From positions 143,752-207,751 of the IMG/VR virus record IMGVR_UViG_3300033068_001989: a DNA stretch of 64,000 bases, one strand, 5' to 3'. The position numbers and the translations under genes are program-made. Source of the DNA: a virus. Taxonomy: Duplodnaviria > Caudoviricetes. Positions 32,454 through 47,615 of the stretch are shown in pieces (the stretch's first letter is position 1; each line of letters opens with the position of its first letter). Under the pieces are notes generated by a model. That model saw only the letters and a list, made by a program, of their open reading frames with translations. It did no database searches and had not been told where the DNA came from.

Positions 32454-33101
32454 TTATTGTTTTTTGATCCTTCCAAATTCCCATCCTTTTGACAAATGTT
32501 CATTTAGATCTATTTCTTTTATCTTCTTATCTGTCTGTCCATCATTGATCCATCTTGTGCCAAATTGAGAGTTTTTTTCTCCTTTTTGGTTCAATGAATT
32601 CTTAAGACCCACTGATAATTTTGCCTCTTCCGTATGAGATCTTCCTGAGAAGGTGTCATACTTATATTTGCCATCTCTGTGATTTTTTTTAGCCAATTCA
32701 GAGAGATGCTTTCTTAAATTTTCTTTAAAATCAGAATCGTTGTTTACTTTTATCGAAAATGCTCTAGCACCAGATTCTGTAAATTTCTTAAGATGCTCTA
32801 TACCACTAATACCTCCGCCTCCACCTGGCTGTAAATTCATACACATTGGATCGTTTAAAAGATCCTCGTTAACTAATTCGATTTCTCTCTTTCTTAAAGA
32901 TTCTCGATCTTCAAAATATTCAAGAATTTCCTTAGTGTGTGCTTCCTTACCGTGCTTTCTTATCGATTCTCTTATTCTTCTACCACTTCCCATGTAACCA
33001 TCATCTAAGTTATGCGTAGAGTGAATCCCTATGTAATATTTACCATTTTTTGTATTTGTTATTTTATACGAATAATGATATTTATATTTTTTTCTAGCCA
33101 T
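32454..33101 (-). CDS. GIY-YIG homing endonuclease (Seg-like, NUMOD3-like tail)
   Basis: YSYKITN..KYYIGIH..YMGSG; HTEEAK; free-standing in the tRNA array. Confidence 0.88.
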   Translation of the reverse strand: MARKKYKYHYSYKITNTKNGKYYIGIHSTHNLDDGYMGSGRRIRESIRKHGKEAHTKEILEYFEDRESLRKREIELVNEDLLNDPMCMNLQPGGGGGISGIEHLKKFTESGARAFSIKVNNDSDFKENLRKHLSELAKKNHRDGKYKYDTFSGRSHTEEAKLSVGLKNSLNQKGEKNSQFGTRWINDGQTDKKIKEIDLNEHLSKGWEFGRIKKQ

Positions 33102-33375: not shown

Positions 33376-34026
33376 CTATTTTTTATTTCTTCCTAGTAAC
33401 CATCCATCATTCAGATATTCGTTAAGGTCGCATCCCTTAATCTTTTTATCCTCCTGATTTTTATTTACCCATCTTGTACCAAATTGTGAATTTTTATTAC
33501 CAATTCTATTTATAGAATTTTTTTCACCTATTATTTTTTTGGTATCTTCTGTATGTTTTTTATCTTTGAAAGTTGGAGATCTCTCTGAATATGCTCCGTC
33601 CTTCCATGCTTTTTTAATCGTCTCGGAGGTCAACTTTTTAAAATGGAGTCTAAAATCCGCATCATTTTTTAACTTCTCTGAAAATCCCCTTCCCCCCGAG
33701 GAGCTGCATTTTTTCATATGCTTCTCGTTTATAAACCCTCCACCACCACCGGGCTGTAGATTCATGCACATTGGATCATTTAATAAATCCTCATTAACTA
33801 ATTCAATTTCTCTTTTTCGTAGGGATTCTCTGTCTTCGAAATATTCCAAAATTTCCTTGGTGTGTGAATCCTTTCCATGTCTTCTTATTGAATTTGTAAT
33901 CCTTTTACCACTTCCAAAATAATCATCATCAAGATTATCTGTAGAATGCATACCTATATAATATTTACCATCCTTTTTGTTGGTTATCTTATAGATATAG
34001 TGAAACCTCTTTTCTTTTCTTGCCAT
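33376..34026 (-). CDS. GIY-YIG homing endonuclease (Seg-like, NUMOD3-like tail)
   Basis: YIYKITN..KYYIGMH..YFGSG; KKHTEDTKK; close paralogue of 32454-33101. Confidence 0.88.
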   Translation of the reverse strand: MARKEKRFHYIYKITNKKDGKYYIGMHSTDNLDDDYFGSGKRITNSIRRHGKDSHTKEILEYFEDRESLRKREIELVNEDLLNDPMCMNLQPGGGGGFINEKHMKKCSSSGGRGFSEKLKNDADFRLHFKKLTSETIKKAWKDGAYSERSPTFKDKKHTEDTKKIIGEKNSINRIGNKNSQFGTRWVNKNQEDKKIKGCDLNEYLNDGWLLGRNKK

Positions 34027-34154: not shown

Positions 34155-34430
34155 GTTAATAAAAAAAGAAATATCCAAACCAATTTCACATCCCTTTACT
34201 CTTTGGTTTACCAGTCTTGCGGACTGTGCTGGTCATCTTCCGTTCTTTTCTCAAAATCTTTAGGTGTTCTTACTATCTCTATCAGATCACTGGGATTTTT
34301 GTTGAATTGAGTTTATTATGATCGGTCTATTGCGTCAGGGTATGGCAACCAATAGACTTGTACCTCTCCAAAAATATTTCTTTTAATTCTTTATGTTAAT
34401 GAACGTTGTTTCTTTGTTTATTATTGTATT

Positions 34431-34463
34431 GCAAAAGTATGATATTCTTTCGGGATAAAAAAA
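34431..34463 (-). promoter_or_regulatory. host-sigma (Bacteroidota-type) early promoter
   Basis: TTTTTTATCCCG-N11-TACTTTTG; the same motif recurs about 13 times in the window. Confidence 0.75.
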
Positions 34464-34516
34464 TTATTTTTGATATTTTTTTGAATTTTTTCAAAAATAA
34501 TTTTTTATCACCTTTG

Positions 34517-34590
34517 CCGAGATAACGGGAATCGAACCCGTTTCGCACGCCGTGACAGGGCGGCATCCTTCGCCAGTGGACCTTACCTCG
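34517..34590 (-). tRNA. tRNA-Asp(GTC), second divergent copy
   Basis: Cloverleaf with CTGTCAC loop. Confidence 0.8.
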
Positions 34591-34599
34591 AATATTTTG

Positions 34600-34689
34600 C
34601 GGAGGGTGAGGGGCTCGAACCCTCGCGACCTATCACTAGATCCTACCTGTTTAGCAAACAGGCCTCTTCACCAACTTGAGTAACCCTCC
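34600..34689 (-). tRNA. tRNA-Ser(GCT)
   Basis: Cloverleaf with long variable arm. Confidence 0.95.
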
Positions 34690-34743
34690 GAATACAAGCC
34701 CAGAAAATTGCGCATGCTAGCAGAGGCGTTCTGGGAATTGTTG

Positions 34744-34830
34744 TACCCCGAGCCGGAGTCGAACCGGCACGCTCCTTTCGGAACACCAGATTTTAAGTCT
34801 GGGGCGTCTGACCATTTTCGCCATCGGGGC
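34744..34830 (-). tRNA. tRNA-Leu(TAA)
   Basis: Cloverleaf with long variable arm. Confidence 0.95.
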
Positions 34831-34837
34831 ATTAATT

Positions 34838-34929
34838 TGGTACAGATGGCGGGAATCGAACCCGCGTTTGATGCTATCTCAACAACCGCTACGAGTATAG
34901 AAGATATAAGCTTCCATCGGTACATCTGC
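34838..34929 (-). ncRNA. tRNA-like RNA with a rearranged core
   Basis: Acceptor GCAGATG/CATCTGT+ACCA and canonical T arm, but no canonical D arm. Confidence 0.65.
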
Positions 34930-34935
34930 TAATTT

Positions 34936-35012
34936 TGGGTGACTGGTGGGGTTTGAACCCACGACCTCCTGAACCACAATCAGGCGTTCTAACCAGCTGA
35001 ACTACAGCCACC
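34936..35012 (-). tRNA. tRNA-His(GTG)
   Basis: Cloverleaf, G-1, encoded CCA. Confidence 0.95.
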
Positions 35013-35067
35013 ATGTTACGATCTATAAGGCCAGATCGTCAGCCAGTGCCTTCTCCCTAGGGAGATG

Positions 35068-35346
35068 CTATTTATTATCTCTATTTTTACCTAGATGATA
35101 TCCGTCACAGAATATACATTTATAAACACTGAAATATTTACCATGTTTCCTTTGCATTGAATCTGCTGCCTTTCTTGCTGATTCCTTTGTTGGAAATCCC
35201 TGTTTTTCCTTTCCGTCCATTCTATAATGGCTTCTTTTATCAAATAATCCTAATGCATTACCTGTTATAAAGAAATTACGAAATGCTCTTTTTAAGGGAA
35301 GCTGATCCTTCAAACCAAGAATCAAATTCTTTAATTTAATTGGCAT
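35068..35346 (-). CDS. hypothetical basic protein with a CxxC..H motif
   Basis: YKCIFCDGYHLG. Confidence 0.7.
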   Translation of the reverse strand: MPIKLKNLILGLKDQLPLKRAFRNFFITGNALGLFDKRSHYRMDGKEKQGFPTKESARKAADSMQRKHGKYFSVYKCIFCDGYHLGKNRDNK

Positions 35347-35782
35347 TTTCTTTTGTTTTATTAAATTCGTCCGCGGTTACTTTTTTTATCGGTGTAAATA
35401 AAGCGAACCCATCGTCGTCTTCGAAGTGATTGCATTTATCGATGAAATAGTTTCCCATCTTAAATCTCCAATATTCAAAAACGTTCATAGTTTCATTCCA
35501 TCTTCCGATTTTACCTCTTCTATGATCACCTAGATAGAAAGCACCATCTTCGAGTTCATTCTTAGGTATTGCACCAGCTTTAATGAGTCTTGGTATATAG
35601 TATTCTTTATACTCCTTCTCGTTAACTTTTGGTATTTCTGGTACGTCTTGCGGAATTTTAAAAGTCTTAAGATTATCCCATCTTTTTCTTCTAAGCTCCT
35701 CAAAATTCTTTTTATCAATTTCCCTTTTTTCCTCAAGGAACTTTTTGATCTGTTCGATTTTTTGTTTTTTGTCTGGTTCCAT
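35336..35782 (-). CDS. hypothetical protein
   Basis: 148-aa ORF directly after tRNA-Cys. Confidence 0.7.
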   Translation of the reverse strand: MEPDKKQKIEQIKKFLEEKREIDKKNFEELRRKRWDNLKTFKIPQDVPEIPKVNEKEYKEYYIPRLIKAGAIPKNELEDGAFYLGDHRRGKIGRWNETMNVFEYWRFKMGNYFIDKCNHFEDDDGFALFTPIKKVTADEFNKTKENAN

Positions 35783-35800
35783 GACTATGTTTTTAATTAG

Positions 35801-35883
35801 AGGTACCTGTCAGATTCGAACTGACGTGAGATTTCTCTAGCGGTTTTGCAGACCGCTCCTTTCAACCACTCAGGCAAGGTACC
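35801..35883 (-). tRNA. tRNA-Cys(GCA) with long variable arm
   Basis: CTGCAAA loop, U73, GAGA/TCTC variable stem. Confidence 0.85.
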
Positions 35884-35891
35884 GTGTTTAG

Positions 35892-35964
35892 AGCCTAAGA
35901 CAGGGGTCGAACCTGCGACCTGCTGATTACAAATCAGCTGCTCTACCAACTGAGCTACTTAGGC
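35892..35964 (-). tRNA. tRNA-Thr(TGT)
   Basis: Cloverleaf. Confidence 0.95.
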
Positions 35965-35972
35965 ATTTTTTG

Positions 35973-36058
35973 AGGAGACCAAGGGGATCGAACCCTATGC
36001 AGTTGCCCGCACCCGATGCTTTCCAGGCATGGACTATCACCGTTTAGTATTGATCTCC
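35973..36058 (-). tRNA. tRNA-Ser(GGA), 8/4-type fold
   Basis: 8-bp acceptor GGAGATCA/TGGTCTCC, 4-bp T stem, long variable arm. Confidence 0.7.
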
Positions 36059-36172
36059 ATTGAGGGTTGACATATAGAATCTTTCCTATTTTCTGCGGTA
36101 TAGGTACCATCATGGATTCCGTTGACCGATTCGTCTTTATAACCCCATACGGAACAAGCAGGGTAACCTAAG

Positions 36173-36260
36173 CGGAGGGAGTGGGATTCGAACCCACGGG
36201 AGTAATTAGCTCACACAAGATTTCAAGTCTAGGCGCTTTTGACCACTTGCGCACCCCTCC
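36173..36260 (-). tRNA. tRNA-Ser(TGA)
   Basis: Cloverleaf with long variable arm. Confidence 0.92.
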
Positions 36261-36291
36261 AATTTACTTTTACAATATTTCAATGAACAAT

Positions 36292-36439
36292 AAAAAAGGT
36301 CTCCTTTTTAGAGGAGACCTTTTTGATATTATTATATGTCTTAATATCAATACTCTCTCCTCATTACAATAGACGATTCACAAGTTGAACTCGTGTGATC
36401 TAAATGTAATGTATCTAATATGTACTGTATTTGTGACAT
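36292..36439 (-). promoter_or_regulatory. leader-peptide attenuator 1 (30-aa uORF 36347-36439, terminator 36292-36324)
   Basis: uORF MSQIQYILDTLHLDHTSSTCESSIVMRREY*; its GAGGAGA can pair with TCTCCTC in the terminator 5' arm. Confidence 0.65.
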
Positions 36440-36546
36440 GATTTTTATTTTTATAGATTTATATATCTAATTGATTTTAATATTTTATGCAAATTTAATG
36501 AAATGTTTCGAATAAAAAAAATTATTTTTTATTTTTTTTTCAATAT

Positions 36547-36822
36547 TTATTGAATTTCGTTTAATTGCTTAGGTATAAATTCACCAGTTTCTGTGATGTC
36601 TGCATATCTAGAAACAATATCACTCAATCCTCTTAGTAATTCCTCGAGGTTTTTTTCTTTTTCTGTTGGTCCATTTGTTGAACTGAAATTAGGTACAGCA
36701 ATTTTTTGTTTAACTAATCTATCAAGATCAGATTTCAATTCATCAGCTACGGATTTTTCATCACCGTAGAATTTTTCGTTAATTTCCGATTTATCAGAAT
36801 CGTAATGTTTAAGATATCTCAT
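36547..36822 (-). CDS. hypothetical protein
   Basis: MRYLKHY..INE N-terminus. Confidence 0.7.
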   Translation of the reverse strand: MRYLKHYDSDKSEINEKFYGDEKSVADELKSDLDRLVKQKIAVPNFSSTNGPTEKEKNLEELLRGLSDIVSRYADITETGEFIPKQLNEIQ

Positions 36823-38409: not shown

Positions 38410-39990
38410 TTAGATAACAATAGCTTCGATTTCTCTTAAAATCGCTTTTGGATCGATCTCAGCTTTTTTGATCATCTCGTAGATATCAGCAGAGTAACCA
38501 AAAAGTTGAACTAATTTGTTACCTGGTTTGAACATGGTTGTACCATATCCTTGAATATCAACAGTGTAGATGAAAGGTTCGCCATGTGCAGATTTGTAGG
38601 ATTGGAAAGAACTGTTTGTAACGATTCTATCACCACCTTGTAAATCTGATATGATGAAGATACGATCATATTTACCGCTTTTTTGTAAAGTTGAGAAGAT
38701 TGAGCCGAAGTCAGTACCATGACCAACTCTACCTTGCAAACTTAAACATGTATTTTTGATCGTATTGATGCTATCGCCAGGATTGTATCTGATACCTTCT
38801 GTTGTTGTCGCAAATTGGTATAAATCTGCACCGATACCTTTTGCTAACGTTGCTCCAATAAGAGCAGCTTTATCAATACAATGTTTGTTTATAGCTTTAC
38901 CATTCATGGTAACTCCATGTCCCATTCCGTGCATAGATCCAGATGTATCAATAACAACCGCTGTTCTGCCATGTGAGAATAATTCGAGCAAGTTTGGTAT
39001 TGCTAATTCGTAAGCTCTATTCAAAGCAGTAACGAATGGTCTAGACGCAGAAGCACTAGTTTCTTGTAAAAGAATCTCCAAAGCAATATCTATTTGGTGA
39101 GGAAAGACCAAAGATTTTCTGATCAATTTCTCATCGATTAAAAGCTCACACGCACCACTAACTAATTCAGAATTTGAACTTGTGTTGATGATGTTTCTTA
39201 AATTACGAAGCAATGCCAAGTAACCAATTTTTCTAGTTTTAATCAATTCAGCATAGTTGCTTTCTTTAGCTTGTGTCAATTCAACCTCTGCTTGGGCTTT
39301 AGTGATTTCACCGGATTTAACTTTTGCAGCAACTTCCTGTCCTGATTTTGTGTTTTTGTCCTCGACAGTGTTGAATTGTTTTAACTTACCAGTCATAAGT
39401 TCTTTGAAAACCCCCTCCATTTGTGGTGTTGTTGGTTTTGGACGAACCAAGTTAACAACATCAACAAGTGAAACTGCTTTCCCTTTACCTTGATATTTAG
39501 CTAATTCGTATGCATCTGCTGATTCTAAAGCTGCTTTAAAGCCTTTCTTCATTGAGTTAGGTAATGGTTTACCAGGATTGAAGTGTTGGTAAGCTGCGAT
39601 AATCTCCAATACGTCATCTAAACGGTATATAATACCACCAGTTTTAGCATTCTTATCTCTTTTTGAGAAGAATCTTCTACCTATAGCTGATCCGGATAAA
39701 TGTTTAACTAATGATACAGATCCGAAATGTGTTACTGATCTTTGACCAACAACAGTTCTCGCGTATACAAGAGCTTTAGCAACGAATTCGATATCTTTCT
39801 TGGACAATTCGTCGATAAGTTGAACAAATCTGTTCTCTCTATCTGATAATTTTTCATAGTATGAATTATCCAATCCTGTGGTAAGAATAGCAATTAATTC
39901 TAATTTTGGATCATACTTCACACCGGTACCACCTTGATGGTTTGTAACTGTCTCAACAGTTCTTTTTACTTTTTGATTGTAACGTGACAT
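38410..39990 (-). CDS. TROVE-domain Ro60/Rsr-like RNA-binding protein
   Basis: N-terminal TNHQGG, YELAKY, ALLRNLRN, C-terminal vWA domain with DTSGSM, GTDF, IISDLQ. Confidence 0.9.
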   Translation of the reverse strand: MSRYNQKVKRTVETVTNHQGGTGVKYDPKLELIAILTTGLDNSYYEKLSDRENRFVQLIDELSKKDIEFVAKALVYARTVVGQRSVTHFGSVSLVKHLSGSAIGRRFFSKRDKNAKTGGIIYRLDDVLEIIAAYQHFNPGKPLPNSMKKGFKAALESADAYELAKYQGKGKAVSLVDVVNLVRPKPTTPQMEGVFKELMTGKLKQFNTVEDKNTKSGQEVAAKVKSGEITKAQAEVELTQAKESNYAELIKTRKIGYLALLRNLRNIINTSSNSELVSGACELLIDEKLIRKSLVFPHQIDIALEILLQETSASASRPFVTALNRAYELAIPNLLELFSHGRTAVVIDTSGSMHGMGHGVTMNGKAINKHCIDKAALIGATLAKGIGADLYQFATTTEGIRYNPGDSINTIKNTCLSLQGRVGHGTDFGSIFSTLQKSGKYDRIFIISDLQGGDRIVTNSSFQSYKSAHGEPFIYTVDIQGYGTTMFKPGNKLVQLFGYSADIYEMIKKAEIDPKAILREIEAIVI

Positions 39991-41571: not shown

Positions 41572-41731
41572 TTATAAGGGAATGATGTAAATAGCGTTTT
41601 TTCTAACGTGCTCTACCAACTGAGCTATTCCCCCCAAATTTTTAATTTGTTTAGTGGGGGAAGATGGATTCGAACCACCGACACCGTGCTTTCAATGCAT
41701 ACGAAGTAACTATTTTACTGACCACTTATAA
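41572..41731 (-). ncRNA. Y-RNA-like element 4 (YrlA-type permuted order T - acceptor loop - D)
   Basis: AGTGGTCA..TAGTTACTTCG, GGTGGTTCGAATCCATC, TTCCCCC/GGGGGAA, TAGCTCAGTTGGTAGAGC, CATTCCCT. Confidence 0.78.
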
Positions 41732-42286: not shown

Positions 42287-42291
42287 TTATT

Positions 42292-42458
42292 TAATTCTCT
42301 GCGCCTCCATCTACAAGTAGCAATAAATGTGTTTATCCTTTCGCTGAATCGCCCTATAGACTCAGTTGCAGCTAATCAGCACTTAGATACCGCCTTCCTT
42401 TCTCACGGATTAAGGTTACACTTTGGAAATTCACCTCTACGGACACACAGAGAACTAA
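42292..42458 (-). ncRNA. ~165-nt rod-like RNA, possibly 6S-like
   Basis: Terminal stem TTCTCTGTGTGTCCGT/ATGGAGGCGCAGAGAA; length and shape fit 6S. Confidence 0.4.
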
Positions 42459-42461
42459 TTC

Positions 42462-43692: not shown

Positions 43693-43713
43693 TTCGAAAT
43701 GTTTAAAAATTAG

Positions 43714-43803
43714 TGATCAGAACAGGAATCGAACCTGTGCTCTGCCGAAGATACCCCGATTTCTCGGATCGACGACCAAATACTCCCACTATATCATCTG
43801 ATC
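43714..43803 (-). ncRNA. tRNA-like RNA with an enlarged anticodon arm
   Basis: GATCAGA/TCTGATC acceptor, T arm ACAGGTTCGATTCCTGT, extra hairpin in place of the anticodon loop. Confidence 0.6.
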
Positions 43804-46405: not shown

Positions 46406-46579
46406 ATTATAATAAAGTTGTTTTTGTTTAATAAACCTGCCTGGTTTATTATGATTTTTCAACTTTAGTGTATTGATTTAGTTTCCGTTATGCCAAAGAT
46501 CATATTTTTTTAACATTGCAAATATATGAAATGCTTTCGAATTAAAAAAATATTTTTTTAATTATTTTTTTAATTTTTG

Positions 46580-47054: not shown

Positions 47055-47073
47055 TTAATTTTAATTTCAGTCC

Positions 47074-47271
47074 AAAAAAAAACTCCAGATCTTTTAAGAT
47101 CTGGAGTAAAAATATTTAATGCTTATTTGACTAGTTCTTACATTAAATTATATCGTGACCTCCAGATCCCTTGCTGTACCCATTATACCATTTGGCAATG
47201 CCCACCTGATTAAAGGGTGCAACGCTCTGCGGCATAAACGGTTTTACATTATTTCGGAAAGTTGTTTTCAT
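47074..47271 (-). promoter_or_regulatory. leader-peptide attenuator 2 (42-aa uORF 47143-47271, terminator 47074-47107)
   Basis: uORF MKTTFRNNVKPFMPQSVAPFNQVGIAKWYNGYSKGSGGHDII*; its GATCTGGAG is complementary to CTCCAGATC in the terminator 5' arm. Confidence 0.68.
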
Positions 47272-47369
47272 TGTTTTTTAAATTATAGATTTATATATCT
47301 AATTGATTTTAATATTTTATGCAAATTTATGGAAAAGTTTCGAATAAAAAAAATTATTTTTGATTTTTT

Positions 47370-47615
47370 TTAAATATTTTTAATTATTTCATCTAAACCA
47401 ATCTCTTTTACTGAGTCGAAATCGGAAGCATCATATGGTGTATCCTCCAGAATATAATATTTTTCCATGAAATATGGTCCTGATCCGTATCCTATTGCAA
47501 GTGCCTTCATTTCCTTTCCCCCGTATGCTACCAAAACAGTTCTTAGCGACGTGTTAGTATTTTTATTCATTACTTCCTCTAGCAAAGTAGAATTAAATTC
47601 CTGTATATGTTTCAT
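47370..47615 (-). CDS. hypothetical protein
   Basis: MKHIQEFN..LLEE N-terminus. Confidence 0.7.
   Translation of the reverse strand: MKHIQEFNSTLLEEVMNKNTNTSLRTVLVAYGGKEMKALAIGYGSGPYFMEKYYILEDTPYDASDFDSVKEIGLDEIIKNI

Follow-up and report, generated by a model that had tools for sequence, protein, structure and literature searches.

What decides whether a phage transcribes a run of tRNA genes placed behind an intrinsic terminator? Such genes are mostly regarded as constitutive codon-usage helpers and, lately, as substitutes for host tRNAs destroyed by defence nucleases, and to our knowledge their regulation has hardly been described. The window analysed here, a 64-kb stretch with 34% G+C that forms the final part of a 207,751-bp virus contig, has 34 minus-strand tRNA genes and none on the other strand, spread from 31.8 to 49.4 kb. 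Two of its arrays are preceded by a leader containing a short upstream ORF (uORF) and a terminator, designated as leader B (copy 1, at 36.3 kb) and leader A (copy 2, its paralogue, at 47.1 kb). Contigs of close relatives, found in IMG/VR and in metagenomes, are 400–435 kb in length and carry terminal repeats in two cases, thus indicating a giant phage. By blastn against GenBank phages, the tRNA genes alone of this region were matched and no annotated relative was retrieved. The genes of the phage start downstream of an A-rich stretch without a Shine-Dalgarno signal, and the recurrent promoter motif of the phage includes TAnnTTTG, which is the sigma-A -7 box in Flavobacteria and Bacteroides (PMC9723704); these sequence features together point to a host belonging to the Bacteroidota.

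Several other elements are found in the tRNA region. A 526-aa protein (38410–39990, minus strand) shows a TROVE (Ro60) domain (Pfam E = 3.6e-10) and a sub-threshold Rfam match to YrlA (Y RNA-like) at 41604–41687 (minus strand) adjoins tRNA-like elements; the two resemble a phage module of Ro60 and Y RNA. Paralogous genes for two SegE-type GIY-YIG homing endonucleases (32454–33101 and 33376–34026, both minus strand; Pfam PF19835/PF01541), having a 300-nt stretch in common at 78% identity, are located between tRNA genes. A G+C-richer, ORF-free spacer of about 170 nt (42290–42461, minus strand), which may be a structured RNA, separates tRNA-Arg(ACG) from a 57-aa ORF standing behind the promoter motif 42683–42659. 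The 91-nt tRNA called by ARAGORN at 43713–43803 (minus strand), with a two-base anticodon without assignment and an Rfam tRNA score of 39.4 bits, is an odd tRNA or tRNA-like gene.

Leader B lies downstream of a 91-aa ORF ending at 36547 (minus strand), for whose protein no relative was found in IMG/VR. Its features, and those of the block that follows, are:

36488–36512, minus strand: promoter motif TTCGAAA-N8-TAAATTTGCA, found 6 times in the window (0.01 expected)
36497–36490, minus strand: sigma-A -7 box TAAATTTG of the Bacteroidota type, within the promoter motif
36454–36469, minus strand: 5'UTR hairpin TAGAT-ATATAA-ATCTA, present in the MFE folds
36347–36439, minus strand: uORF of 30 codons plus TGA stop (MSQIQYILDTLHLDHTSSTCESSIVMRREY), from the ORF list, its frame kept in the variants
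36371–36418, minus strand: codon-matched putative 'sensor' run, codons 8–23, from wobble matching to the downstream tRNAs
36311–36362, minus strand: two-helix antiterminator, folded in the MFE when the terminator 3' arm is left off the transcript
36293–36324, minus strand: intrinsic terminator, a 13-bp stem (5 GC pairs) followed by a U-tract, -17.8 kcal/mol
36277–36289, minus strand: conserved boxA-like element TGTTCATTGAAAT, between the terminator and the first tRNA
34516–36260, minus strand: putatively regulated block of 8 tRNAs and two ORFs, bounded by the next promoter motif at 34454–34430
36260–36172, minus strand: tRNA Ser(TGA), the first tRNA, 32 nt past the terminator

The uORF, the terminator hairpin with its U-tract and the tRNA run beginning at Ser(TGA) had all been recognised in a previous sequence-only reading of this locus, and are present as described. 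The same reading proposed tandem early and late promoters. The early one is upheld by the enrichment of its motif, which also heads other tRNA blocks directly; the late one was rejected, as its motif GATATATAA is unenriched in the window (6 found, 5.85 expected) and corresponds to the loop of the conserved 5'UTR hairpin. Since TAnnTTTG is located at -12 to -5 in Flavobacterium (PMC9723704), placing the -7 box of leader B accordingly predicts a transcription start near 36485. The resulting 5'UTR, 46 nt long and A-rich, carries the small hairpin, which could be a protein-binding or stability element. The same hairpin occurs in leader A at 47286–47301 (minus strand), within a block near-identical between the two leaders, and in the divergent leader-B variant L035 it reads GGAT/ATCC, a compensated change in which G-C takes the place of an A-U pair. 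The start context of the uORF is A-rich and has no Shine-Dalgarno sequence, as in the long ORFs of the phage, and the matched run sits in a self-contained hairpin (36410–36363), as seen in the prefix MFE.

The block comprises, in order, tRNAs Ser(TGA), Ser(GGA), Thr(TGT) and Cys(GCA), two ORFs of 148 and 92 aa, and tRNAs His(GTG), Leu(TAA), Ser(GCT) and Asp(GTC). Ser(TGA) and Ser(GGA) are separated by a 113-nt spacer (36059–36171, minus strand); in several relatives ARAGORN calls no Ser(GGA) at the equivalent position and the spacer is about 210 nt long (212 nt in L035). Between tRNA-His and tRNA-Leu there is also a short tRNA-like or tmRNA-like fragment (34838–34889, minus strand), which scores a sub-threshold 27.1 bits with the Rfam tmRNA model. 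No TAnnTTTG was found in the interval between the terminator and tRNA-Ser(TGA). The nearest word, TAAATTGG, was discarded as a promoter, as it enters the tRNA and fits neither TAnnTTTG nor TAnnTTGY. Having no promoter of their own, the tRNAs of the block are expected to be expressed only via terminator readthrough. The core of the boxA-like element, TGTTCATTGA, is invariant in 9/9 leader-B variants, divergent L035 included, and boxA-like words also occur after two internal promoters (34393–34405 and 46490–46502, both minus strand); the tRNA region holds three TGTTCATTGA-like words, according to a pattern derived post hoc. The element might serve in antitermination of the Nus type or in processing.

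Is the terminator of leader B opposed by an alternative structure? The complementarity between GAGGAGA (36362–36356) and TCTCCTC (36317–36311), overlapping the terminator 5' arm, had been noted before and is exact; it forms the outer helix of the antiterminator. An inner helix is formed by TTGATATTA (36350–36342), which holds the TGA stop, and TAATATCAA (36331–36323). The MFE of a nascent transcript stopping short of the terminator 3' arm is exactly this two-helix antiterminator, and in that transcript the upstream pairing of the terminator 5' arm has a probability of about 1.

The architecture occurs a second time in the window, at leader A:

47056–47344, minus strand: paralogous leader A, with the same promoter and 5'UTR and the same layout
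47271–47143, minus strand: uORF of 42 codons, unrelated to that of leader B
47170–47096, minus strand: antiterminator, from the fold of the nascent transcript
47107–47082, minus strand: terminator, followed by tRNA-Pro and its array

A 128-nt block at 36564–36437 recurs at 47396–47269 with 83% identity, and the two leaders do not differ in the core promoter or in most of the 5'UTR. Past the ATG the leaders are unrelated, and the sequences of uORF, antiterminator and terminator all differ. Nevertheless, the last codons of the leader A uORF (GGGATCTGGAG) pair with the terminator 5' arm in an outer helix, and its TAA stop lies within the 5' strand of the inner helix, as does the TGA in leader B; a self-contained mid-ORF hairpin adjoins the antiterminator. 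That unrelated sequences share this architecture is, in our view, the strongest of the structural arguments. The 42-aa peptide of leader A is found at 71–88% identity in nine database clusters and is called as a gene by several pipelines, and the 30-aa ORF of leader B is represented by one gene call among database records; no family was found in Pfam or PHROGs for either peptide.

The strength of the alternative pairing was compared among the 26 hairpin and U-tract terminators found by a scan of the 207-kb contig. The pairing probability of the terminator 5' arm failed to separate terminators and was dropped as a metric; stabilisation, defined as the free energy gained by the nascent RNA when the terminator 5' arm pairs upstream, was used instead. 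Leader A (-14.3 kcal/mol) ranks 1/26 and leader B (-11.6 kcal/mol) 2/26; the next best terminators show -9.5, -6.5 and -6.1 kcal/mol and the median is about -1.5 kcal/mol. In dinucleotide shuffles of the upstream 100 nt, 0/500 attained the observed stabilisation for each leader. The alternative between antiterminator and terminator, deduced earlier from the complementarity, is thus beyond chance. In leader B the local energies are near-equal (antiterminator -17.9, terminator -17.8 kcal/mol). In full-length folds the terminator state is preferred, by 9 kcal/mol in leader B and 3 kcal/mol in leader A, hence the switch would have to be kinetic, the antiterminator acting, like that of classical attenuators, as a kinetic trap that forms 5' first.

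If a ribosome sets this switch, which codons would make it wait? Codons 8–18 of leader B (L D T L H L D H T S S) are all decoded, under strict wobble, by the 8 tRNAs of the block, and the run reaches codon 23 admitting U34 four-way reading of ACT and the Glu tRNA farther down the array. Overall, 15/29 codons are decoded by the 8 tRNAs, against a background of 0.235. With sliding windows over the phage's own ORFs of at least 150 aa as the null, 15/29 matched codons occur with a frequency of 0.003 and a run of at least 11 with one of 4.5e-4. Leader A behaves likewise, 30/41 codons being decoded by its own array (null 8e-4), and each leader is depleted in codons of the other's array (7/29 in leader B, 8/41 in leader A). 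A 2x2 Fisher test of this reciprocal matching gives p = 3e-5. Because codons for the same amino acid are non-independent, a permutation was also used, in which the 24 array-specific anticodons were swapped between arrays; over 200,000 runs, the observed 46 matched codons have p = 6e-5, or 0.0014 for leader A and 0.0023 for leader B taken separately, with codon sets chosen after inspection of the data and natural array boundaries used. Behind leader A, an internal promoter motif (46541–46517) is preceded by the tRNAs for Pro, Trp and Gln only, and their codons alone (5/41, p about 0.1) are not significantly enriched, so the match of leader A rests on tRNAs that are also behind internal promoters. 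From the match of codons 8–18 in leader B and the reciprocal match of leader A it follows that the leaders are, as far as codon content tells, multivalent and codon-specific sensors, not unspecific ones.

The positions of these elements along the uORF agree with such a role. Counted along the ORF of leader B, nt 69 is the last of the matched run, nt 78–84 and 90–98 form the 5' strands of the antiterminator, and nt 91–93 are the stop; in leader A the run extends to nt 96, the strands lie at nt 102–112 and 118–132, and the stop at nt 127–129. The footprint of a ribosome extends about 13 nt downstream. With that footprint, a ribosome having its A site at any of codons 8 to about 22 of leader B is predicted to leave nt 78 onward unoccupied, and one at the stop to cover both antiterminator 5' strands. 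In an untranslated leader B the antiterminator folds, so that readthrough is predicted.

Conservation was analysed on 21 distinct variants, 12 of leader A and 9 of leader B, the divergent leader-B copies being found through their neighbouring genes; a metagenome scan with the neighbouring 148-aa ORF added one locus. ORF length and reading frame are kept in 21/21 variants, with an in-frame 3-nt insertion in the uORF of L035. Nascent-transcript MFE folds contain the antiterminator in all variants but one, L035 at full length. In the full nascent leader of L035 the antiterminator is missing from the MFE and appears only once the 5' half of the uORF is masked, that half being predicted to sequester the antiterminator strand.

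Synonymous sites are constrained as well. Between the window and the leader-B variant L032, the same codon is used at 26/28 identical residues of the uORF, compared with 89/153 in the two ORFs that flank it (p = 1.8e-4); for the leader-A variant L027, again relative to the window, the figures are 28/31, and 44/70 in the neighbouring gene (p = 0.003). The amino-acid identity of the leader A peptide (0.81–0.95) is below that of its neighbour (0.91–0.96). Judged from these comparisons, the synonymous constraint is a signature of selection on RNA or codon identity, not of purifying selection on the protein. Among the changes in the matched run of L035, T to S, H to S, an added T and S to T stay within the amino-acid set of the block and L to I falls outside it (4/5 within).

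At the level of RNA structure, two-sided changes are confined to the terminators of L026 (CTCCGGATC/GATCCGGAG) and L035 (a compensated double change, GGTCTTCT/AGAAGACC), both leaving a G-U pair in the antiterminator, and to the 5'UTR hairpin. In L018 and L021 the inner helix is rebuilt (GUUUAAUG/CAUUAAGC) after a 6-nt deletion. The antiterminator itself shows wobble-compatible one-sided changes only, the relatives being 88–98% identical and hence too close for covariation; its stems are paired in 97.7% and 95.5% of cells, values not clearly exceeding those of shuffles, and its loops are variable.

Taken as a whole, the locus can be explained, with a probability that we regard as fair, as a codon-matched leader-peptide transcription attenuator that gates a phage tRNA block by feedback on tRNA supply. 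The geometry of ribosome-coupled attenuation proposed by the sequence-only reading is consistent with every structural and comparative test that was run on the modelled folds and variants. Its general translation sensor, deduced from the lack of a single-amino-acid run, is instead contradicted by the reciprocal codon matching.

Could such a general sensor explain the locus all the same? An attenuator reacting to any slowing of translation, for which the codon content is meaningless, would take from the geometry alone its link between readthrough and the arrival of the ribosome at the stop, and would agree with an antiterminator predicted to form without any translation. Against it stand the significant match of each leader to its own array, the constrained synonymous sites and the L035 substitutions that stay in the matched set, and we hold it unlikely. 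A simpler view is that the leaders are two ordinary small-protein genes with their own terminators, the tRNAs being expressed by constitutive leaky readthrough, the codon match being chance and the upstream complementarity serving mRNA stability or being incidental. The database clusters and pipeline gene calls of the 42-aa peptide, the single gene call of the 30-aa ORF, and covariation that stays undemonstrated among close relatives are all in line with it. Nevertheless it appears improbable, given an antiterminator strength ranking first and second among the terminators of the contig and unattained by shuffles, a stop codon embedded in a helix in both unrelated leaders, a synonymous conservation above that of neighbouring genes together with a leader A amino-acid identity below that of its neighbour, two peptides without a Pfam or PHROG family, and the outcome of the anticodon permutation.

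Antitermination might also depend on a factor, either a phage or host protein bound to the 5'UTR hairpin or Nus factors recruited by the boxA-like element, giving temporal control without any role for the ribosome. The promoter and 5'UTR block, near-identical in the paralogues and in all relatives, with its compensated stem change in L035, and the invariant TGTTCATTGA after the terminator would suit this explanation. It leaves unexplained the in-frame conservation of the ORF, the stop inside the antiterminator and the codon matching; moreover, the boxA-like element is downstream of the terminator, and leader A is without one. We regard it as very unlikely. Hardly conceivable is a T-box-like riboswitch, in which uncharged tRNA would bind the leader RNA and stabilise the antiterminator: the function is analogous, since tRNA status controls an antiterminator, but no Rfam T-box match was obtained at E <= 1 in 30000–51000, nor any other riboswitch match, and the leader is a conserved ORF without the specifier-loop/T-box motif architecture. 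In the same Rfam comparison, Phe_leader (30.8 bits against a threshold of 55, E = 0.13, below the gathering threshold) and STnc230 (36–40 bits against a threshold of 50) were both sub-threshold and were treated as chance matches.

According to the codon-matched attenuator, the host RNA polymerase would start at the sigma-A-type promoter near 36485 and transcribe the uORF. The early RNA would fold as the antiterminator, sequestering the terminator 5' arm, so that by default, or when translation lags, transcription would read through into the tRNAs. An unhindered ribosome would reach the UGA inside the antiterminator 5' strand and melt that strand, allowing the terminator to form and transcription to end after about 190 nt. 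A ribosome waiting at codons 8 to about 22, i.e., at Leu-UUA, Asp, Thr, His, three kinds of Ser or Cys, would sit upstream and leave the antiterminator intact. Scarcity of the tRNAs would then increase transcription of the block and sufficiency would switch it off, a negative feedback, and the phage would probably make the tRNAs of the block mainly under slow reading of those codons. In this attenuator we infer the translation of the uORF, the coupling of transcription and translation, and the direction of the response. Such scarcity might arise early in infection, when the host supplies these tRNAs poorly, or through host defences that cleave tRNAs; which physiological signal acts is uncertain, because extra tRNA is unable to relieve amino-acid starvation. 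Leader-peptide attenuation has been reported for amino-acid operons in Flavobacterium (PMC9723704), hence the host phylum is able to support the mechanism. As the sequence-only reading had supposed, a full-text literature search retrieved no account of leader-peptide attenuation of tRNA genes, either in phages or in bacteria.

The nearest parallels are the multivalent attenuators of enterobacteria, namely the thr leader, with Thr and Ile codons, and the ilvGMEDA leader, with Ile, Leu and Val codons. These also have a short leader ORF, in which regulatory codons for more than one amino acid are clustered, and a terminator opposed to a mutually exclusive antiterminator, the choice being decided by the position of the ribosome in a kinetic switch whose terminator is favoured at equilibrium. 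They differ in regulating biosynthetic enzymes and not tRNA genes, and in sensing two or three amino acids, compared with six (seven or eight tRNA species) here; the present leaders belong to a giant phage whose host is of the Bacteroidota type, and have no sequence or Rfam relationship to them. Furthermore, the 1:2 pairing of those leaders is replaced here by a self-contained hairpin holding the codon run, and for this reason the absence of translation is predicted to give readthrough, not termination. In the leaders studied here the regulatory codons fit the regulated product through the anticodons of the tRNAs and not through a biosynthetic pathway.

As in trpL and hisL of E. coli, the stop and the ribosome footprint overlap the antiterminator 5' strand and stalling upstream would free it, whereas the single-amino-acid runs of those leaders are lacking and the leader of the window has no clear 1:2 anti-antiterminator; the sequestration predicted in L035 does resemble the 1:2 pairing of trp. 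The pheM leader of pheST and the T-boxes of synthetase genes likewise couple codon decoding capacity to the expression of a component of the translation machinery, but control synthetases, whereas here the tRNA genes themselves would be controlled; T-boxes, moreover, sense uncharged tRNA directly, without a ribosome, and the leader shows none of their features. Leaders of the ermC/cat type share a short uORF whose translation state remodels the downstream RNA structure; they respond to drug-stalled ribosomes and mostly control translation, in contrast to the codon-matched run and intrinsic terminator found here.

More tentatively, each leader might perform a multiplexed surveillance of the tRNA pool, sampling 6 to 13 tRNA species and opening its array when any of them becomes limiting. 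The trigger could then be a host anticodon nuclease or another tRNA-depleting defence, and phage tRNA arrays would be an inducible, self-limiting counter-defence, not constitutive codon-usage helpers. The arrangement of uORF, antiterminator, terminator and promoterless tRNA array gives a signature that can be searched across phage genomes, and small 'hypothetical proteins' annotated ahead of tRNA arrays may be leaders. A leader sampling the codons of its own tRNAs would provide the phage with a homeostat for decoding capacity, and the classical principle of attenuation would extend from amino-acid supply to tRNA supply.
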